DNA of 21,327 nucleotides from Candidatus Firestoneibacteriota bacterium (GCA_043822305.1 JBDRBU010000121.1:1-21327); one strand, 5' to 3'; numbered from the stretch's first letter, positions 3,954 to 16,351 are shown. Notes: generated from the sequence alone by a model not told the origin. Translations and numbers: made by a program.

Positions 3954-3969
3954 ATTTCCGGCAATTATG

Positions 3970-4054
3970 GACAGCGACTAATTGTTTATTGACTGAAGAA
4001 AAGAATTTTATTAATATTGATGTGTGTTATGGAGTAGCAGGAATGATAAAAGCA
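3970..4054 (+). repeat. 84-bp direct repeat, copy 2
   Basis: Matches 2614-2697. Confidence 0.9.
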
Positions 4055-6383: not shown

Positions 6384-8415
6384 AAAACATGAGTTAATAG
6401 GGATATTGTGGTTTGTCTTGAGTATTTTTTTAATGATTTCATTATTGTCTTTTTCAGGTGGTAATTACCTTGGATTAATAGGCAAGTATGTGCAATCGGT
6501 TTTTCTTTATTTATTTGGTTTATCTTCTTATCTTTTTCCATTTATATTTGGTGTAATTGGTTATTTTACATTTGTAGATAAGAAATTTGAAAAACCACAT
6601 TTTAAGATAATTGGTAGTTCTTTGTTTATTATTGCTTTATGTTTGCTGTTTTATTTGCTTGGGTTATCGAACTCTGAAAGCAATATGCTTGGATTTTTAA
6701 TTGGTTTGGGAGTTATTAAAACAACAAGTAGATTAGGAGGATATATATTTTGTGTTATAACTTTTGTTCTCTCTATTTATTTTTTAGAATTCGAAGAAAT
6801 TTTCAAAAATCTTTTAAGTAATATTATCCAGATTCTTAAACAAAAATTTAATAAGCCGGTGAAGATTGAAGACAAAATACAGAAAAAAGATGAACATAAG
6901 GAAGAGATTAAGCCAAGGAAGTTGCAAAAGAAAGATATAAAAAAAGAGATTAAAGAAGAAAAACCTTCTTTGGGGACACCATTAGTTAGCCCCGCATCTT
7001 CTGGTGCATGGGTAAAGTATGAGTTACCTCTAATGGATCTTTTAAATAATATACCGACTACTGTTTCTTTTAAGGAAGATTTAAGGGCAAATGAAGAAAC
7101 AATTAAAAAGACTTTGAAAAATTTTGGTATTGATGTAGAAATTTCAAGAACAGTTAAAGGTCCTGTCGTTACGAGATACGAAATTAAACCAGCACCCGGA
7201 ACAAAAATAAATAAAATAGTTAGTTTATCAAATGACTTAGCCCTCGTACTTAAAGCAACGCATATCAGGATCATTGCTCCTATTCCAGGCGAATCTGCCG
7301 TGGGTATTGAAATTCCTAACAAAAAATATAGTCTAGTTACTTTAAAAGAAGTAATTCAATCAGATAGGTTTGCAAATTTTAAAGGGGTTCTCCCTGTTTC
7401 AGTAGGTAAAAGTGTAGATGGCGAAGTCCTGGTTTATGATTTAGCCGAGATGCCGCATTTGCTTGTGGCCGGGGCAACAGGTTCAGGGAAAAGTGTATGT
7501 TTAAGTACAATAATAATTAGTTTGCTTTATAAGTTTACCCCATATGAATTAAAACTTTTATTAATCGACCCTAAAAGAGTTGAATTATCTTTGTATAAAG
7601 ATTTACCTCATTTATATTCTCCAGTGATAAATGATGCTAAAAAAGCTACAGATGCTTTGAAACTACTTAATAAAGATATGCAGGATAGGTACAACAAATT
7701 ATCTCAGGTTAATGCGCGAGATATAATTTCTTATAATAAGGTGGCCAAAGAAAAATTACCATATATAGTTGTGGTCATAGATGAATTAGCAGACTTAATG
7801 TTGGTCTCAGCCAGAGAAATAGAGGAGGCTATAACCAGACTGGCCCAGATGGCCAGGGGAGTTGGAATTCATCTGATTTTTGCTACACAAAGACCATCTG
7901 TTGATATTATAACCGGAGTTATAAAAGCAAATTTTCCTTCAAGAATTGCGTTACAGGTTTTTTCCAAAGTAGACTCAAGGGTTATACTTGATACGGGAGG
8001 AGCAGAAGATTTACTTGGTAAGGGAGATATGTTAATGTATTTAGCCGGTTTTCCAAAACCAGTTAGAGCCCAAGGTGCATATGTGTGTGAATCAGAGGTT
8101 AAAAAAATTATTAATTTTTGGAATGGACAGGGAAAACCAATTTATTATGGTCCTGACGAGAAAGAGAATATTAGCCTTAGCGATACAGAAGAAATGGATG
8201 AATTATTTAAGAAAGCATTAATACTTATAAAAGAAAGAAAAAGGGCATCGGCTACATTGATTCAAGGGGCATTGCATATCAGTGGAGGAAATGCATCAAA
8301 TCTAATAAGCATTATGGAAACAAAAGGTTTAATAAGTCCAAGTACTGGCTCAAAATCAAGAGAAATTTATTTTGACAAGATCGATGAATTATTGGACAAG
8401 TTTGATAAAAAATGA
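6376..8415 (+). CDS. ftsK: DNA translocase FtsK/SpoIIIE
   Basis: N-terminal TM domain, GPVVTRYE, RIIAPIPG, PHLLVAGATGSGKS (Walker A), IDPKRVEL, VVIDELADLM (Walker B), ATQRPSVD, GAEDLLGKGDM, C-terminal gamma domain. Confidence 0.97.
   Translation: MSKKHELIGILWFVLSIFLMISLLSFSGGNYLGLIGKYVQSVFLYLFGLSSYLFPFIFGVIGYFTFVDKKFEKPHFKIIGSSLFIIALCLLFYLLGLSNSESNMLGFLIGLGVIKTTSRLGGYIFCVITFVLSIYFLEFEEIFKNLLSNIIQILKQKFNKPVKIEDKIQKKDEHKEEIKPRKLQKKDIKKEIKEEKPSLGTPLVSPASSGAWVKYELPLMDLLNNIPTTVSFKEDLRANEETIKKTLKNFGIDVEISRTVKGPVVTRYEIKPAPGTKINKIVSLSNDLALVLKATHIRIIAPIPGESAVGIEIPNKKYSLVTLKEVIQSDRFANFKGVLPVSVGKSVDGEVLVYDLAEMPHLLVAGATGSGKSVCLSTIIISLLYKFTPYELKLLLIDPKRVELSLYKDLPHLYSPVINDAKKATDALKLLNKDMQDRYNKLSQVNARDIISYNKVAKEKLPYIVVVIDELADLMLVSAREIEEAITRLAQMARGVGIHLIFATQRPSVDIITGVIKANFPSRIALQVFSKVDSRVILDTGGAEDLLGKGDMLMYLAGFPKPVRAQGAYVCESEVKKIINFWNGQGKPIYYGPDEKENISLSDTEEMDELFKKALILIKERKRASATLIQGALHISGGNASNLISIMETKGLISPSTGSKSREIYFDKIDELLDKFDKK
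6985..7016 (-). repeat. Short palindromic element inside the ftsK linker
   Basis: Reverse complement TTTACCCATGCACCAGAAGATGCGGGGCTAAC aligns to 20261-20295 (27/32 matches, one 3-nt gap). Confidence 0.65.
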
Positions 8416-8443
8416 TAAAATAAGGGCATGGGGAGGTTTTAAT

Positions 8444-9715
8444 ATGGAAAGCAATAAATTAGACATAACTATAGTTGGTGGAGGAATGATAACGGCTGTT
8501 CAGATACTTCCTTCTATTTATCAACTTAAAAAATTGGGACTAATTAAAGATATAAATATAGTGGCCTTAAATGGTGGCTTTCTTAAATCCCTGGCTGAGA
8601 ATAAAACATTAAAAGACGCATTTCCGAATCAATCATTTACTCCTTGCCCTGATTATAAAAAAATTGATATAAATAAAAATTTTCCAGACCTTTATAAAGA
8701 AGTTATAAAAAAAATGAAACCTAAAAATCTTGTTGTTGTGGCTACACCAGACAACCTTCATTACAAGGTAATCAAAGAAGCATTATCAAATGACCAGAAT
8801 ATTATGAGTGTAAAACCACTTGTCTTAAATTATAAAGAATCAAAAGAGATTGAGAATTTAGCTTATAAGAAAGGTTTATTTGTAGGAATTGAATATCACA
8901 AGAGATTTGATGATAGAAGTCTTATGGCCAGACGTCGATACCGCAGTGGTGATTTTGGGGAATTTAAATTAGGGCAGGCACATTTGATGGAAAAATGGTA
9001 TTACAGACATTCTAATTTTCAAAACTGGTGTACTGTAAAAAATTCTGATGTATTTTCATATGTTGCCTGTCATTATATTGACCTGGTAGCATTTATAACC
9101 GGATTACTTCCTACTCAAGTTTCAGTTTATGGGATAGTTGATAAATATCCTAATGGTTATGAAGGATTCTTATGGACCGATGGTAAAGTAATCTGGAATA
9201 ATGGTGCTTGTTTAAATGTTCAAAACTCGTTAAGTTATCCAGACAAAAGTCCGGGTGGTAACAGTCAAGGAATGGTTTTATTTACACAAGGGAAAGACGA
9301 TGGTGGAGTAATATCTCATTCTGACCAGTTTAGAGGAGTAAAGCATTCTTTTTTAACAAAAGGGACTGACCCGGGTGATACATTTTATAATGAACCAAGC
9401 CCAGATTATTTTCAATATGTGTCTAAAGGAGGTATTGGATTAGTTCCTGTCGGTTATGGTTATCGCTCAATAGAAGCTATTGTTCATTCGACTTTAAAGG
9501 TAAATGAAGCAACTGCTCTTGAAAAAAGAAAAAAAATCATAAAAGAAATTGATAAAGAAGGAATCATAGCCACACCGGCAAATAGTTTTTATAATGAACT
9601 CGTAATGGAAGCGGGTAGGTTGTCTATATTAAATGAAGGTAGGGATGTAGTGATAGAATATGGTCAAGAACCAAAAGTAAGATTTAAAGAAATTTCAGAA
9701 TACAAAAAATATTGA
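8444..9715 (+). CDS. Gfo/Idh/MocA-family NAD(P)-dependent oxidoreductase
   Basis: GGGAGG RBS before ATG 8444 (ORF track starts at 8372); IVGGGMI Rossmann motif, VATPD.LH, VKPL, EYHKRFD, CHYIDL. Confidence 0.85.
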   Translation: MESNKLDITIVGGGMITAVQILPSIYQLKKLGLIKDINIVALNGGFLKSLAENKTLKDAFPNQSFTPCPDYKKIDINKNFPDLYKEVIKKMKPKNLVVVATPDNLHYKVIKEALSNDQNIMSVKPLVLNYKESKEIENLAYKKGLFVGIEYHKRFDDRSLMARRRYRSGDFGEFKLGQAHLMEKWYYRHSNFQNWCTVKNSDVFSYVACHYIDLVAFITGLLPTQVSVYGIVDKYPNGYEGFLWTDGKVIWNNGACLNVQNSLSYPDKSPGGNSQGMVLFTQGKDDGGVISHSDQFRGVKHSFLTKGTDPGDTFYNEPSPDYFQYVSKGGIGLVPVGYGYRSIEAIVHSTLKVNEATALEKRKKIIKEIDKEGIIATPANSFYNELVMEAGRLSILNEGRDVVIEYGQEPKVRFKEISEYKKY

Positions 9716-9719
9716 AATA

Positions 9720-9778
9720 GGTCTAATTGCTTCGCAATTAACCATGACCAATATTATATTTTACACTAAGGAAAGTCA
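9720..9778 (+). repeat. 60-bp structured repeat, single copy (59 bp)
   Basis: GGTCTAATTGCTTCGCAATTAACCATGACC...AAGGAAAGTCA; 1 deletion and 1 substitution versus the other copies; ends directly at the ATG of 9779. Confidence 0.95.
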
Positions 9779-11764
9779 ATGCAAAAACTTGATTATACTA
9801 AATATAAATTAAAACCAAAAGAAGAAATTTTAGATATTCTATCTTCTAAAAATAATATCTTTATTATTTCTTGTAATAAATGTTTTAAAGAATTTACCCC
9901 GGAAATAGAACCAGAATGTGAAGAATTAACAAATATTTTAAAAGAATCTGGAAAAAATATAGTTAGATGTCTGCCTTTGGATTTCCTGTGTAACAAATAT
10001 TTAACCAAGAAAGAAATAGAAAAAGTAAATAATGATATATCAAAATCAGATGTAGTTGCTGTAATTTCATGTGGCTTGGGGATTCAAACAGTGGCTGACA
10101 TATTAAGTAAGTCAGTATATGGTGTTACTGATTCATTAGATCAAGGTGGTTATCATGGGATTACACTTTCAGCTGAAAAATGTAATGCGTGTGGGAATTG
10201 CTTTCTAACTCTAACTTCTGGTATCTGCCCTGTAGTTCATTGTTCAAAAAGTTTAGTTAATGGACCTTGTGGAGGAGCAAAAAATGGTAAATGCGAGATA
10301 GACAAAAATAAAGAATGTGCCTGGGAAAATATATATAAAAGATTATCGGTTCAGAATAGAACAAAAGAGATTGTAGATAAAAAACCACAGTTAAGAGACT
10401 ATTCAAAAGGTGATTTTAATTTTATTAAATCATATCTAGATAAAATAAGAGAAAAAAGATACGAAGGATTTTATGGTGGACTTTATCCAGAAGAAAAAAA
10501 GGAATTAACCAGGGCTAACTCAATAGAAAAATTCCCCGAAGTTAATACATTTATTATCCCGCTTTTACAGCATACTGGTGCAGTTTGTGAGCCACTTGTC
10601 CAAACAGGAGATATGGTTAAAGTTGGGCAGAAGATTGGAGATTCAAAAGCATTTGTATCATCACCAGTTCATTCAAGTATAAGTGGGAAAGTAATTGCCA
10701 TTGAGTTAAGAAAACATCCCTTACTTCCTATCCCGGTAACTTCTATCGTTATTGAATCTGATAAAAAAAGAACATATGATGATTCAATAAAGCCATCTGG
10801 AACTATTGAAAGTTTATCAAAAGAAAAAATTATTGAAATTATTAAAGATAAGGGTATTGTCGGTCTGGGTGGTGCTCAATTTCCAACATATGTTAAACTG
10901 AAATCTCCTAAGCCAATAGATACTATTATTATAAATGGATGCGAATGTGAACCATTTCTTAATTCTGATTACAGGATAATGATTGAGTACTCAAAAGAAA
11001 TAATATCCGGGTTAAAACTTATAATGAGATCGGTAGAGGCAAAAGATGGAATTATAGCCATTGAAGATAATAAACCAGAAGCAATATCTAAATTAAGCGA
11101 GTTGGTCTCTAACGAATCCAATATTAAAGTAGTAAGTGTTAAAACAAAATATCCTGAAGGTGCTGAAAGAATGCTTATTAAAAGAGTTCTTAATCGAGAG
11201 GTGCCATTAGGAGGACTTCCTTTTGATGTTGGTGTTGTAGTTAATAATGTAAGCACTGTTTATGCCATATGGGATGCTGTCTATAATGGTATGCCTTTAG
11301 TAAAAAGAATTGTAACAGTTGCTGGTGAAAATGTAGGTAAACCAGGAAATTATGAAATACTAATTGGAACACCATTAACAGATATAATAAAGTATTGTGA
11401 TATAAAAATGAAAGATGAATTATTATTAAAAATGGGCGGTCCTATAATGGGTATTTCTCAGTTTGATTATAATGTTCCAATTATTAAAGGAACAACAGGT
11501 ATGGTTATAGTTAAAAAATCGGATATTACTGATGTGGAAACTTCTTGTATAAAATGTGGAAGATGTGTAGATGTTTGTCCAATGGAATTAAAGCCTTCTT
11601 ATTATGTGTTATTAGCAAAAGAGAATAATTTCACTGAGATGGAAAAACACGGTGTACTAAATTGTATTGAATGTGGGTGTTGTGAAAATATATGTTCTTG
11701 TAAGTCATCTATAATGGAAATAATAAAAAAAGCAAAAAAAATTATCAGGGAGAAGAAAAAATAA
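9779..11764 (+). CDS. Fusion of a MetV-like (MTHFR small Fe-S/Zn subunit) domain and an RnfC/RsxC-like NADH/FMN-binding domain
   Basis: aa ~1-210: CNKC, SCGLG, CxxCxxC, GICP...CSKSLVNGPCGG...CE...CAW; aa ~230-661: F.GG..P.EKK, GIVGLGGAQFPT.VK, NGCECEP, KYP.GAE, MGGP.MG and two 4Fe-4S motifs. Confidence 0.9.
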   Translation: MQKLDYTKYKLKPKEEILDILSSKNNIFIISCNKCFKEFTPEIEPECEELTNILKESGKNIVRCLPLDFLCNKYLTKKEIEKVNNDISKSDVVAVISCGLGIQTVADILSKSVYGVTDSLDQGGYHGITLSAEKCNACGNCFLTLTSGICPVVHCSKSLVNGPCGGAKNGKCEIDKNKECAWENIYKRLSVQNRTKEIVDKKPQLRDYSKGDFNFIKSYLDKIREKRYEGFYGGLYPEEKKELTRANSIEKFPEVNTFIIPLLQHTGAVCEPLVQTGDMVKVGQKIGDSKAFVSSPVHSSISGKVIAIELRKHPLLPIPVTSIVIESDKKRTYDDSIKPSGTIESLSKEKIIEIIKDKGIVGLGGAQFPTYVKLKSPKPIDTIIINGCECEPFLNSDYRIMIEYSKEIISGLKLIMRSVEAKDGIIAIEDNKPEAISKLSELVSNESNIKVVSVKTKYPEGAERMLIKRVLNREVPLGGLPFDVGVVVNNVSTVYAIWDAVYNGMPLVKRIVTVAGENVGKPGNYEILIGTPLTDIIKYCDIKMKDELLLKMGGPIMGISQFDYNVPIIKGTTGMVIVKKSDITDVETSCIKCGRCVDVCPMELKPSYYVLLAKENNFTEMEKHGVLNCIECGCCENICSCKSSIMEIIKKAKKIIREKKK

Positions 11765-11769
11765 GTGGT

Positions 11770-12606
11770 ATGAATAGAACAAAGTTAGGTTCTGCAACGG
11801 CTAAAGGTGGATTTGCTAATGAAAGAAGTATTTGCAAAAAGTTTAATAATTGGGAAAAAGATAATGAAGTACAAATGTGGTTTGACATTATGGGATATGA
11901 CTTAAACAAGGTTGATTCTGTAAAAGCCATTCAGGTTCCTACGAGAATCAAAAAAAGCGAGATAAATAAATTTGGAGTTAACGAAGAGCAATATGATAAA
12001 TTTATTCGGTTTAAAAAAGCAGATGCTCAATTAAGAATAGTTATTGTTATTAGCAAGATATTGAAAATAGAAAATCTATCGCTTAAAAAAGCCAACTCTG
12101 ATGCCGATTATAACCAGGTAGATAAAAGAACAGTAGATATTTATCAAAAAATGTGGGGTTTTGATGACGAAATATTTTGCTGGTTAAGATTATTTACCGG
12201 AGAAAGTAATCCAAAACGGTTTAGTAATATAATAGGGAAGATTAAATTAAAGGACAAGAGAAGAATCTTCTTTGATGAAATGCCTGAAAGTGTGCAAAAC
12301 AAAATTATAAAGTTCTTTAATAACAATAAAATAATAGTTATCAGTGATATCCTAAAAGGAAGAGGAGGACTTTCTGCTAATTGGATGTTAGTTACAAAAT
12401 ATAATAGAAAAGATGATACAACAAGTTGGGTGCTTAAAGATATAAATGCAGTTATGAATTTCTTTGGTAATGGTAATGTAATAATGTCACCAAAAGGGAG
12501 TCTTTACATTGGTAGAATTACTATGCAAAGGAAAGGTGGGACTCCAGACCCTACAAAACTACAATTTAAGATAAAGCCATGTCAATTATTTGAAATAGGA
12601 ATATAA
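11770..12606 (+). CDS. Type II restriction endonuclease, HinP1I-like
   Basis: GS.TAK.GF.NE, AD...LSLK catalytic region, NQ.DK, FTGE, DKRR.F, DIL.GRG..A.W, SP.GS...GR.T.QRKGG, LQFKI.P..LF match my recollection of R.HinP1I. Confidence 0.8.
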   Translation: MNRTKLGSATAKGGFANERSICKKFNNWEKDNEVQMWFDIMGYDLNKVDSVKAIQVPTRIKKSEINKFGVNEEQYDKFIRFKKADAQLRIVIVISKILKIENLSLKKANSDADYNQVDKRTVDIYQKMWGFDDEIFCWLRLFTGESNPKRFSNIIGKIKLKDKRRIFFDEMPESVQNKIIKFFNNNKIIVISDILKGRGGLSANWMLVTKYNRKDDTTSWVLKDINAVMNFFGNGNVIMSPKGSLYIGRITMQRKGGTPDPTKLQFKIKPCQLFEIGI

Positions 12607-12608
12607 TT

Positions 12609-13427
12609 ATGGAAATTAATAAAGTATTTTTAGGTGATTGCATAGAAACAATGAAAAAGTTACCTGCTAAAACTATAGATTTGATATTTGCTGATCCTCC
12701 ATTTAATATTGGTATTAAGTATGATGAGTATAAAGACAACATACCATATGATAAGTATTATAACTGGTCAGAAAAGTGGATAAAAGAAATTTATAGACTG
12801 CTGAAAGATGATGGGACGATTTATATTGCTATAGGTGATGAGTTTGCAGCAGAAATTAACTTAATATTAAAAAAAGCAGGATTTCATTTTAGAAACTGGA
12901 TTATTTGGTATTATACTTTTGGGCAAAGTCAAAGAAAGAAGTTTAATCGATCACATACACACATTTTATATTTTACCAAAGATAAGAGCAGATTTACATT
13001 TAATGATAAGAATATTAGAATTCCTTCTGCGAGGCAACTTGTTTATAGAGATAGACGAGCAAATCCTATTGGCAAACTACCAGACGATGTTTGGAAGTTT
13101 TCCAGGGTTTGTGGAACATTTAAAGAGCGTATAATAAACCATCCATGTCAAATGCCCGAAGATTTATTAGAGTTAATAATAAAGGCAAGTTCTAATGAAG
13201 GGGATTTAGTGTTAGACCCATTTGGGGGAACAGGAACAACAGCGGAAGTTGCAAAAAGATTAAAACGGGATTATATAACAATGGAAATATCTGAGGATTA
13301 TTATAATATTATTATCAAAAGGTTAAACAATAAACTTAGTTATATAAAAAGGAATGGAAAAACTGATTTATCGGAAGAACAAAAAACTTTGTTTGATGCA
13401 ATTAAGGGAGAAATAATATGCTTATAA
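12609..13427 (+). CDS. Beta-class N4-C/N6-A DNA methyltransferase
   Basis: IDLIFADPPFN (motif IV) precedes HPCQMP and VLDPFGGTGTT (motif I); adjacent to the endonuclease. Confidence 0.92.
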   Translation: MEINKVFLGDCIETMKKLPAKTIDLIFADPPFNIGIKYDEYKDNIPYDKYYNWSEKWIKEIYRLLKDDGTIYIAIGDEFAAEINLILKKAGFHFRNWIIWYYTFGQSQRKKFNRSHTHILYFTKDKSRFTFNDKNIRIPSARQLVYRDRRANPIGKLPDDVWKFSRVCGTFKERIINHPCQMPEDLLELIIKASSNEGDLVLDPFGGTGTTAEVAKRLKRDYITMEISEDYYNIIIKRLNNKLSYIKRNGKTDLSEEQKTLFDAIKGEIICL

Positions 13428-14029
13428 CTCAACTTAAAAATAAAGAAGAAATTATTCCATATATAAAAGAAAAGGTGCTATTAATAAGTTGTTCGGGATG
13501 CCGTGAGGTGTATTTCCCGATAAAAGAGATGGAAGAACTTAAATCAGAGTTGAAGAAGGGCGGGTTGGTTATATCTGATGAGTTAATATTTGACTATATA
13601 TGTAATGAAGATTGGACAAGAAAAAGATTTGAAATATATAAAGATAAAATAAACGAGGTAAATACAATTCTTGTTTTTTCCTGTGGAGTTGGAATACAAA
13701 CAGTTGCTTCTTTACTTCCTGAAAAAATCATAATTTCTGGAAGTGATACTTTTTATTTACCAGGTTTTTCTGGTATTACTCCTTTAGAGTATGACTGTGA
13801 ACAGTGTAGTGAGTGTATGTTGGGCTACACGCTTGGGATTTGTCCAATAACGGCTTGCTCAAAAGGTTTACTTAATGGACCGTGTGGTGGGGCAAAAAAT
13901 GGAAAATGTGAAGTAAGCAAGGATATGGAATGTGGTTGGCAGAGGATACTTGATAAAAGTAAGAATCTGAATGAAAAGATTAAGATAACAGAAAAAATTA
14001 GATTAAGAAATTATTCGAAATTAACATAG
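13418..14029 (+). CDS. metV: MetV-like methylene-THF reductase small subunit (MTHFR C-terminal domain protein)
   Basis: AAGGGAG RBS; CSGC, SCGVG, CEQCSEC, GICPITACSKGLLNGPCGG...CE...CGW; directly upstream of metF. Confidence 0.88.
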   Translation: MLITQLKNKEEIIPYIKEKVLLISCSGCREVYFPIKEMEELKSELKKGGLVISDELIFDYICNEDWTRKRFEIYKDKINEVNTILVFSCGVGIQTVASLLPEKIIISGSDTFYLPGFSGITPLEYDCEQCSECMLGYTLGICPITACSKGLLNGPCGGAKNGKCEVSKDMECGWQRILDKSKNLNEKIKITEKIRLRNYSKLT

Positions 14030-14207
14030 TCTGTTCGCTTTGGCGAACAACTATTCCTAATATTATTATTTACATTAAGGAAAGTCAGGTCTAATTGCTT
14101 CGCAATTAACCATGACCAATATTATAATTTTACATTAAGGAAAGTCAGGTCTAATTGCTTCGCAATTAACCATGACCAATATTATAATTTTACATTAAGG
14201 AAAGTCA
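14028..14207 (+). repeat. 60-bp structured repeat, three tandem units (14028-14087 divergent; 14088-14147 and 14148-14207 identical)
   Basis: Exact 60-bp periodicity; the divergent unit keeps the hairpin with a different stem sequence and the same 3' TTTACATTAAGGAAAGTCA. Confidence 0.95.
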
Positions 14208-14225
14208 TAATTAACGGAGGTAAAA

Positions 14226-15110
14226 GTGAGATTAGCTGATTTGACCAAGAACGGTAAATTTGTAGTAACTTCAGAAGTAGGACCGCCAAAAGGTTTTCAA
14301 ATAGATAAAATGCTGCATGAAGCAGAAATTTTAAGAGGTAAAGTAGCGGCCATAAATGTTACGGATAATCAGTCATCAGTTATGCGACTTGGTTCATTAG
14401 CTGTTTGTAAGGTCCTGAAAGACAAAGGACTTGAGCCAGTTTTTCAGATTACCTGTAGAGATAGAAATAGATTGGCGTTACAATCTGATATTTTAAGTGC
14501 GGCTTTATTCGGCATAGAGAACTTATTGCTTTTAACCGGTGACCATGTAAAATTAGGTGACCATAAGGATGCAAAGCCTGTATTTGATTTAGATTCAGTA
14601 TCATTAACATATGCTGTAAAGAAACTTGAAGAAGGTTTTGATTTAGCTGGAAATAAACTTGATGGAGAGCCACCAAAGTTTTGTAAAGGTGCAGTTATTT
14701 CTCCTTGTGCAGAGCCATTAGAGCCACAGCTTTTTAAAATGGAGAAAAAAATAAAAGCAGGGATAGAATTTTTTCAAACACAAGCAGTTTATGAGGTAGA
14801 TAAGTTTGATAAGTTTATGAAAAGGGTAAAAGATTTTGGAGTTCCGATATACGCTGGTATTGTTATTTTAAAATCAGTTGGAATGGCTAAATATATGAAT
14901 GAAAATGTTGCTGGTATTTATGTGCCGGACAATCTTATAGAGGAATTAAGAAAAGATAAAGAAAAAACAAAGTCTGGACAGGTAGGTATTGAAATTGCGG
15001 CTAAGTTAATAAAAGATCTAAAACCTCTTTGTCAGGGAATTCATTTAATGCCACTTGGCTGGGATGATAAAGTTCCAAAAATATTAGAATTGTCTGGATT
15101 GAAGGTCTAA
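14226..15110 (+). CDS. metF: 5,10-methylenetetrahydrofolate reductase
   Basis: GGAGG RBS, GTG start; E..PPKG, INVTDN, CRDRNRLALQSD, LTGDH, FFQTQAVY, GIHLM. Confidence 0.95.
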   Translation: MRLADLTKNGKFVVTSEVGPPKGFQIDKMLHEAEILRGKVAAINVTDNQSSVMRLGSLAVCKVLKDKGLEPVFQITCRDRNRLALQSDILSAALFGIENLLLLTGDHVKLGDHKDAKPVFDLDSVSLTYAVKKLEEGFDLAGNKLDGEPPKFCKGAVISPCAEPLEPQLFKMEKKIKAGIEFFQTQAVYEVDKFDKFMKRVKDFGVPIYAGIVILKSVGMAKYMNENVAGIYVPDNLIEELRKDKEKTKSGQVGIEIAAKLIKDLKPLCQGIHLMPLGWDDKVPKILELSGLKV

Positions 15111-15223
15111 TTGCTTCGCAATTAACCATGACCAATATTATAATTTTACATTAAGGAAAGTCAGGTCTAATTGCTTCGCAATTAACCATGACCAATATTA
15201 TAATTTTACATTAAGGAAAGTCA
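15104..15223 (+). repeat. 60-bp structured repeat, two identical tandem units
   Basis: 15104-15163 and 15164-15223; the first supplies the metF stop, the second ends at the nuoA ATG. Confidence 0.95.
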
Positions 15224-15580
15224 ATGATAAACGAATATCTTTCTGTGTTTATTTTTTTAATATTAGCCTTGGGTTTCACGATAGGTGGACTAGCATTTTC
15301 ATTTTTAGTAAGAGATTCAAATCCATCTAATAAAAAGTCAAGCACATATGAATGTGGAGAAGAGCCTATAGGAACTGCCTGGATTCAGTTTAATATGAGA
15401 TATTACCTGTTTGCACTTGTTTTTGTTATATTTGATGTTGAGGTTATATTTTTATACCCTTGGGCTATAGTTTTTAAAGAAACAGGACTTCTTGCATTTT
15501 TTGAAATGATTGTATTTCTGGGAGTTTTAATTATAGGACTTGTTTATGTGTGGAAAAAAGATGCTCTTAAATGGGAGTAA
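15224..15580 (+). CDS. nuoA: NADH-quinone oxidoreductase subunit A
   Basis: Three TM helices, K..TYECG, YYLFALVFVIFDVE..FLYPWA, GL.YVWKK.AL.W. Confidence 0.95.
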   Translation: MINEYLSVFIFLILALGFTIGGLAFSFLVRDSNPSNKKSSTYECGEEPIGTAWIQFNMRYYLFALVFVIFDVEVIFLYPWAIVFKETGLLAFFEMIVFLGVLIIGLVYVWKKDALKWE

Positions 15581-15582
15581 TT

Positions 15583-15774
15583 ATGATAAAGTTAAAGAAG
15601 ATAACCGGTGAAGAAATATTAGTTAATCTTGATCTAATAGAGACAATTGAACGACATTCCGATACAGTCATTTCTCTAACAACAGGAAATAAACTCCTGG
15701 TAAAAGATTCTTTAGATGAAATTACTAATAAAATAGTTGAATATAAACGTTCGATAAAGAGTCAAAATGCCTAA
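15583..15774 (+). CDS. flbD: FlbD/SwrD-family protein
   Basis: GGGAG RBS before ATG 15583; MI.L....G....N.DLIETIE...DTVI.LT.G.K..VK.S..EI...IVEYKR. Confidence 0.8.
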   Translation: MIKLKKITGEEILVNLDLIETIERHSDTVISLTTGNKLLVKDSLDEITNKIVEYKRSIKSQNA

Positions 15775-16351
15775 TCAAATTTCACTTCTAAAATCAAAAT
15801 TACGCAATGAAATCGAGAAAAAAAGGAATTTGCTTTCGCAAAAAGAAATAATAAAAAACAGTGCAATAATAAAAAAAAGATTGTTTGCAACTAATGAATT
15901 TAAACTTGCAAAAAATATTATGTTTTATGTTTCATTTAGAAGTGAAGTTGTAACTTACGATATGATAAAAGAATCTTTACAAAAAGGCAAAAGGATATTT
16001 GTTCCAATCACTAAATTAGAAGAAAAAAAACTTATAATATCCGAAATAAAAGATTTCGATAAAGAATTAGAGGTATCAACATATAGAATATTAGAGCCAA
16101 AAATTAAGTTTCAAAGAGTTTGTGATGCTAATTTATTAGATCTAATTATAGTTCCAGGTGTTGCTTTTGATTTGAAAGGCAATCGTTTAGGATATGGTGG
16201 AGGGTATTATGATAAATTCTTAAAGAATATGCCTTCTAATATTCCCAGAATCGGCTTATGTTTTAAGTGTCAAATTATAAAAGAAATCCCGGTAGATATA
16301 CAAGACGAAAGAATTAATATACTTATAACCGAAAAAGGCAAAATCAAATGA
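15767..16351 (+). CDS. 5-formyltetrahydrofolate cyclo-ligase
   Basis: K..LR, FYVSFRSEV.T, ILEP, DLIIVPGVAFD..GNRLGYGGGYYD. Confidence 0.95.
   Translation: MPNQISLLKSKLRNEIEKKRNLLSQKEIIKNSAIIKKRLFATNEFKLAKNIMFYVSFRSEVVTYDMIKESLQKGKRIFVPITKLEEKKLIISEIKDFDKELEVSTYRILEPKIKFQRVCDANLLDLIIVPGVAFDLKGNRLGYGGGYYDKFLKNMPSNIPRIGLCFKCQIIKEIPVDIQDERINILITEKGKIK

Follow-up and report, generated by a model that had tools for sequence, protein, structure and literature searches.

A probable Acetobacterium-type RnfC2–MetV–MetF methylene-tetrahydrofolate reductase locus, with a restriction-modification cassette between rnfC2 and metV, in a Candidatus Firestoneibacteriota bacterium

The stretch of DNA analysed here, called the window throughout, is the 21,327-nucleotide (nt) sequence JBDRBU010000121.1:1-21327 of a Candidatus Firestoneibacteriota bacterium (GCA_043822305.1). 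Three of its genes, rnfC2, metV and metF, very probably encode a type III, Acetobacterium-type RnfC2–MetV–MetF methylene-tetrahydrofolate (THF) reductase. A preliminary description had drawn attention to a 661-amino-acid (aa) open reading frame (ORF) that joins a MetV-like domain to a full RnfC, and had proposed an uncharacterised variant of the A. woodii reductase, in which the additional MetV module could dock a second MetF or another redox partner. The ORF is as described; the architecture adds nothing new, and what we find is an ordinary type III enzyme, placed in an uncultured bacterium of another phylum. What is particular to the locus is a restriction-modification (R-M) insertion between rnfC2 and metV, a host with no detected Rnf complex, conserved nuoA and GFO-family oxidoreductase neighbours, and leaders formed by a 60-nt repeat.

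Domains and lineage of the fused RnfC2 protein

The window has about 32% G+C and carries a run of genes on the + strand; our domain scan covered 14 of its ORFs. The three genes that make up the putative reductase are:

9779-11764, + strand: rnfC2, whose first 210 residues (nt 9779-10408) form a MetV-like N-domain, followed by a conserved connector (residues 211-230) and the RnfC part (residues 231-661)
13418-14029, + strand: metV, small Fe-S/Zn subunit, 203 aa (PF12225, E 1.5e-28)
14226-15110, + strand: metF, catalytic methylene-THF reductase subunit, 294 aa, with a GTG start after GGAGG (PF02219, 132.7 bits)

The rnfC2 ORF is open throughout its 661 codons and joins a Cys-rich, MetV-like domain to a complete RnfC. 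In Pfam, residues 120-207 match PF12225 (MTHFR_C/DUF5981), which is the MetV family; it is followed by RnfC_N (231-330), Complex1_51K (355-498, E 5e-50), SLBB (511-540) and Fer4 or 4Fe-4S dicluster domains (586-641), and the NCBIfam model TIGR01945 (rnfC) matches residues 231-660 with 488 bits. The MetV-like domain ends in LRDYSK (residues 205-210, nt 10391-10408), and the connector of about 20 aa that follows contains neither a stop nor a Met, both as previously reported. Residues 10-210 are alignable from end to end with the free MetV (42% identity, E 1e-43). Twelve Cys of the N-domain (C32, C35, C71, C98, C135, C138, C141, C150, C155, C164, C172 and C180) are invariant in 20 fused proteins, as are the Cys of two C-terminal 4-Cys motifs (C590, C593, C596, C600 and C629, C632, C635, C639) and the GxGGAxFP stretch of the flavin mononucleotide (FMN) domain (G362/G364/G365/A366/F368/P369). 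The free MetV possesses the matching set of twelve Cys, invariant across 28 homologues. Since all twelve are kept in both places, both MetV modules look fully liganded, in line with the count of six clusters for the enzyme of Acetobacterium woodii (PMC8760232). A search of PDB sequences returned no solved structure of any MetV relative.

The same fusion is already described. In A. woodii, RnfC2 itself bears a MetV-like N-terminal extension of 220 aa (Poehlein 2012, PMC3315566; Oeppinger 2021, PMC8760232), so the supposed departure from that enzyme does not exist. The purified A. woodii enzyme contains RnfC2, MetV and MetF at 1:1:1 (Bertsch 2015, as summarised in PMC8760232), a stoichiometry that lends no support to the docking of a second MetF. 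It is a soluble trimer with 2 FMN and about six [4Fe4S] clusters, and it has high NADH:methylene-THF activity with NADH alone; ferredoxin neither stimulates it nor is reduced by it (PMC8760232).

The fusion is also common. PF12225 and RnfC domains occur together in 120 of the 120 best database homologues (653-823 aa), whose named hosts are Oxobacter, Blautia, Sporobacter, Alkalibaculum, Lachnospiraceae, Firestonebacteria and Elusimicrobia. A scan of species genomes matched at least 597 stretches, from which 80 loci were kept, 46 fused and 34 unfused. Of the 46 fused loci, 43 have a metV after the fusion; two of the others end too early to show one, and the third (L040) is deletion-like. A metF follows in 42, the remaining four loci ending first. 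Fused loci with metV and then metF include those of Acetobacterium tundrae, A. paludosum and an Acetobacterium metagenome-assembled genome (MAG). The window protein and that of A. tundrae are collinear, at 50% identity over residues 5-660 with 4 gap positions; the latter has the same set of Pfam domains, and the connector is conserved in it as well. The window MetV is 56-63% identical to the MetV of its relatives and 53% to that of A. tundrae, and MetF is 80-83% identical to its relatives and 65% to the A. tundrae protein. A further 556 stretches in a metagenome scan encode relatives at identities of about 48-55%, none of them a near relative of the window locus; the proteins P0004 and P0005 are close kin, at 82-85% identity. 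Since the fusion is both common and already described, which the preliminary description had itself named as grounds against its proposal, the claim of novelty fails.

Two of the kept loci depart from the usual arrangement. In Blautia difficilis (L040, 3859-5903), the fused rnfC2 stops near residue 346 of the RnfC part and continues as MetF residues 173-290, with no metV, an apparent deletion or assembly join. In a Lachnospiraceae locus (L016, 3961-5528), a second, diverged metV-metF pair lies about 2.5 kb upstream of the rnfC2-metV-metF set.

To place the RnfC part we built an unrooted tree of 87 proteins, starting at window residue 231 (quick IQ-TREE search, LG+G4) and leaving out five truncated rows (L024, L037, L040, L046 and L065). 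A single branch (SH-aLRT 100) separates 54 fused from 33 unfused proteins, and the window protein lies within the fused side together with three Acetobacterium rows. There it falls in a 10-row clade with its relatives, where the named members are Firestonebacteria, with Elusimicrobia basal; the sister group is a Bacillota clade containing Acetobacterium. The ORFs downstream of the 33 unfused genes encode RnfD in 28 cases, RnfG-like proteins in three and an RnfB-like protein in one, with no match for the last, which identifies the unfused side as the RnfC of membrane Rnf complexes. Among solved structures, the RnfC chains 9eri_C, 7zc6_C and 8ahx_C match residues 229-660 only (E 9e-111 to 7e-88). 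Judged by the placement in the tree, the window RnfC domain belongs to the RnfC2 lineage and not to the RnfC of Rnf operons. The earlier assignment to an RnfC2-type enzyme with two MetV modules, one of them fused to the NADH/FMN subunit, holds. The same tree nests the rnfC2 of a contig labelled Prevotella sp. (L012) among Blautia and Clostridia sequences, which is probably a binning error of that MAG.

Genome context, proposed mechanism and alternatives

The window is contig C121 of a metagenome-type assembly (G000) of 2.15 Mb that is 96.8% complete. Rnf membrane-subunit genes are absent from the window, as the preliminary description had noted, and neither RnfD (PF03116) nor RnfA/E (PF02508) has a match in the whole 96.8%-complete genome, with both control sets positive. 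RnfD is likewise found in 0 of 31 genomes of a phylum sample, the RnfA/E search having covered this genome only. Elsewhere in the genome, contig C52 carries genes for AcsB, carbon monoxide dehydrogenase (CODH), two CooC, AcsC and FolD; an AcsE-like gene lies on C102, and there are two FTHFS genes. The G+C content and tetranucleotide use of C52 fit the genome. Within the acs cluster of C52 (L106:6321-8255), CsgG-like and Yip1-domain genes stand between CODH and AcsB, and AcsB is followed by NuoE-like, NuoF-like and 2Fe-2S/4Fe-4S proteins. The window metF is the sole methylene-THF reductase gene found in the genome (a single match). Because the genome has these CODH and acetyl-CoA synthase (ACS) genes, a single MetF and no Rnf that we could find, the enzyme most likely works in the methyl branch of a Wood-Ljungdahl pathway, in an organism without a detected Rnf complex.

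Taking the purified enzyme of A. woodii as a model, we envision that the FMN in the RnfC part of RnfC2 would oxidise NADH. The electrons would travel on through the [4Fe-4S] clusters that RnfC2 would carry in its two C-terminal 4-Cys motifs and its MetV-like N-domain, and through those of MetV, to the flavin of MetF, which would reduce methylene-THF to methyl-THF. The enzyme would be soluble and would work independently of an Rnf membrane complex. Domain content, conserved Cys, clade, gene order, the lack of Rnf membrane genes and the presence of CODH/ACS are observed here; the specificity for NADH, the cofactors, the stoichiometry and the flux direction are presumed from homology.

Several points weigh against this picture. 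The enzyme is assigned here from sequence alone, and A. woodii is not among the loci that we fetched, so that the link to it runs through published papers and three other Acetobacterium genomes. In the window, rnfC2 and metV are 1.65 kb apart through the R-M insertion described below; since it splits genes that overlap as TAATG (rnfC2 stop and metV start) in 4 of 6 relatives' loci, their translational coupling would be lost, with no assurance that the subunits are made in balance. CODH and ACS are encoded on other contigs of this metagenome-type assembly, which leaves some chance of a binning error. Finally, acetyl-CoA synthase (PF03598) was found in 0 of 11 relatives of the same order (G001-G011), with completeness of 80-98%, and the physiological direction and role of the enzyme here are argued from context.

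The last of these points bears on a reading in which the enzyme serves C1 anabolism (methyl-THF for methionine synthesis) or the oxidation of methyl groups and not the Wood-Ljungdahl pathway. The fusion with MetV beside it occurs in 10 of the same 11 relatives; it was not found in a sample of 19 genomes that share the class or phylum but lie outside the order, and acetyl-CoA synthase is present in G000, G012 and G014. With the cluster in 10 of 11 relatives and the synthase in none of them, the cluster is not tied to acetogenesis in this lineage, and the presence of rnfC2-metVF should not be taken there as a marker of acetogenesis or of the Wood-Ljungdahl pathway. A 5-formyl-THF cyclo-ligase gene, found near the cluster in 5 of 6 relatives' loci, also speaks for this reading. 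Nevertheless, the window genome has CODH, AcsB, AcsC, an AcsE-like protein, FolD and FTHFS together with only this MetF, so the enzyme would have to serve the Wood-Ljungdahl pathway too, and we regard a purely non-acetogenic role in this organism as very unlikely. The question concerns in any case the physiological role and not the mechanism of the enzyme.

We consider it equally improbable that the fused MetV module offers a docking site for another redox partner or an additional MetF, or that it confers ferredoxin-dependent or bifurcating chemistry. The presence of two MetV modules, each with all twelve conserved Cys, would be compatible with such a variant, and so would a structure prediction of MetF, MetV and the fused N-domain, the last as scored partner, in which the N-domain was placed against MetF and MetV. 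The score was 0.48 (0.46-0.48 in three runs), compared with 0.01 for the best control and 0.01 when MetF was replaced; the runs agreed in at least 45% of contacts, and the pLDDT of the partner was at least 71. The mark for this score is reached by 116 of 157 solved complexes and by 2 of 215 mismatches, and passes at or below 0.60 are more often wrong than right unless the pairing is likely beforehand. The prediction thus lends weak support to a position of the N-domain against MetF and MetV, and it adds little beyond the purified A. woodii complex. That characterised enzyme has the same two modules at 1:1:1 and shows no reduction of, or stimulation by, ferredoxin (PMC8760232), and the window copy equals the Acetobacterium proteins in domain content.

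A further reading ties the reductase to the membrane. RnfC2 would replace RnfC on a membrane complex, here by docking on a complex-I-like Nuo, and would couple the reduction to ion translocation. Occupation of the RnfC site by RnfC2 was proposed for A. woodii (Poehlein 2012, PMC3315566), and a membrane link was revived more recently (Oeppinger 2021, PMC8760232). The neighbours that matter for this reading and for the preceding discussion of folate metabolism are:

8372-9715, + strand: GFO/IDH/MocA-family oxidoreductase, with its true start probably near residue 25 (PF01408, E 6e-9)
15224-15580, + strand: nuoA (PF00507, E 1.5e-38)
15767-16351, + strand: 5-formyl-THF cyclo-ligase, a folate-metabolism neighbour (TIGR02727, 169 bits)

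nuoA, found as a single copy in the genome, directly follows metF in the window and in 6 of 6 relatives' loci, and nuoBCDHI stand beside the acsE-like gene on C102. The nuo genes are, however, spread over at least four contigs, with nuoM/N-like genes on C32 and a nuoL-like gene on C114, and so the adjacency of nuoA may be a matter of gene order only. RnfD and RnfA/E were not found in the genome, nor RnfD in the phylum sample, and the enzyme isolated from A. woodii is a soluble trimer, active with NADH alone (PMC8760232). That an RnfC2-type reductase occurs in a non-Bacillota lineage in which no Rnf membrane gene was found (RnfD in the 31 genomes, RnfA/E in this one) itself argues against RnfC2 working by docking on Rnf. 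We find a docked enzyme highly improbable, and give scarcely any credence to the narrower idea that the GFO-family oxidoreductase, rnfC2, metV, metF and nuoA form one functional unit in which the sole NuoA ties the reductase, physically or by obligatory co-expression, to the dispersed Nuo, even though such a unit would amount to membrane-linked, energy-conserving methylene-THF reduction of the kind long postulated for acetogens.

Like the window, 6 of 6 relatives' loci have the GFO-family gene directly upstream of rnfC2. In the relatives the gap measures about 3-215 nt, and in the four loci of family f3 only about 3-16 nt; the gene may belong to the same operon as rnfC2. A protein atlas search returned generic Gfo/Idh/MocA clusters only for this protein.

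The restriction-modification cassette and the 60-nt repeat

The separate metV and metF do follow the fusion on the same strand, as had been stated, but metV does not come directly after it. Between the two lies a pair of R-M genes that the preliminary description did not mention, in the same orientation:

11770-12606, + strand: type II restriction endonuclease of the R.HinP1I family (PF11463, E 1e-54; PADLOC REase_II, E 4e-66)
12609-13427, + strand: N6/N4 DNA methyltransferase, partner of the endonuclease (PF01555, E 2.6e-62; PADLOC MTase_II, E 4e-73)

The pair occupies 11770-13427 and is tightly packed between its neighbours: the gap from the rnfC2 stop to the endonuclease ATG is 5 nt, the two R-M genes are 2 nt apart, and the last 10 nt of the methyltransferase overlap the start of metV. 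None of the relatives shares this arrangement. In the ten same-order relatives with the fusion, a MetV match begins at most 17 nt after it with no R-M genes between; the six relatives' loci that were fetched run GFO-family oxidoreductase, rnfC2, metV, metF, nuoA and contain no R-M genes; and in 43 of 43 other fused loci with metV, rnfC2 leads to metV with no intervening R-M. The endonuclease was found in one of the 31 genomes of the phylum sample, that of the window. The R-M genes have 30% G+C, like their neighbours, which gives no sign of foreign origin, so the argument for acquisition is one of presence and absence among relatives. On that ground we infer that the cassette was acquired horizontally and inserted exactly between the rnfC2 stop and the metV start.

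A trace of the insertion may be preserved at its right edge. The sequence AATTAAGGGAGAA (13400-13412), just before the metV ATG, repeats the rnfC2 3' end AATTATCAGGGAGAA (11740-11754), although the repeat is short and imperfect. Because AATTAAGGGAGAA resembles the ancestral rnfC2 end seen in the relatives, a short target duplication at the insertion is plausible but not proven. Mobile type II R-M units that insert with target duplication at gene boundaries, with repeats over start or stop sites and with their target genes left intact, have been described, as has a type II R-M inserted into an operon-like structure (Furuta, Abe and Kobayashi 2010, PMC2853133), which makes the insertion in the window a known kind of event. 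The likeness lies in a cassette set between a stop and a start codon and flanked by repeats; the window differs in that its flanking repeat is short and imperfect and that no mobility gene is present. As the cassette breaks no reading frame, read-through transcription probably still expresses metV and metF. On the + strand, the gene junctions in 11764-14226 showed no terminator-like site in a consensus scan, which is weak evidence on co-transcription. The locus would offer a clean example of how an R-M cassette can come to sit between two translationally coupled genes in an operon of central metabolism.

A second peculiarity of the locus is an intergenic repeat of 60 nt, dispersed and in tandem, which occurs at three places around the reductase genes:

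9719-9778, + strand: one copy, ending exactly at the rnfC2 ATG and carrying an AAGGA Shine-Dalgarno-like motif
14027-14207, + strand: about 2.5 tandem copies between metV and metF
15103-15223, + strand: two tandem copies, ending exactly at the nuoA ATG

Each copy contains a hairpin (TAATTGC-TTC-GCAATTA) with the tail AAGGAAAGTCA and a promoter-like TTCGCA-18-TATAAT. By blastn the genome holds 17 copies, with 10 matches on 9 other contigs. Six copies end exactly at the ATG of ORFs of at least 60 aa, among them rnfC2 and nuoA, and on this account the repeat would supply the Shine-Dalgarno-like motif and serve as a gene leader. A search of the entire window against Rfam gave no hit at E <= 1, so the repeat is not a known RNA family. 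A relation to the group II intron on contig C32 was considered and rejected, as there is no resemblance. The window also contains a 72-nt direct repeat at 2604-2675 and 3960-4031, its copies 92% identical and 1356 nt apart.

Comparison with known systems

Reductases of type IV (MetFV-HdrCBA-MvhD) have hdrABC and mvhD beside metVF; in the window no Hdr or MvhD domain was found in the 14 ORFs scanned, the rest of the genome not having been searched for them. Type II MetVF reductases, of Clostridium ljungdahlii and others, are built from MetV and MetF of the same families as those in the window, but they are without the RnfC2 module for NADH and do not use NAD(P)H (PMC8760232), whereas an RnfC2 gene is present here. 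The RnfC subunit of membrane Rnf complexes (9eri_C, 7zc6_C and 8ahx_C) shares the RnfC_N, FMN-binding, SLBB and 2x[4Fe-4S] domains with the window protein, yet the solved chains have no N-terminal MetV-like domain.

Closest is the type III RnfC2-MetV-MetF system of A. woodii (Awo_c09290 onward), which has the MetV-like N-terminal stretch of about 220 aa on an RnfC-like subunit and the order rnfC2-metV-metF. The window differs from it in its host, which belongs to another, diderm-type phylum and in whose genome no Rnf complex was found, and in the genes that surround and interrupt the set: a GFO-family oxidoreductase upstream in place of fhs/fchA/folD, nuoA downstream, and an R-M pair between rnfC2 and metV.

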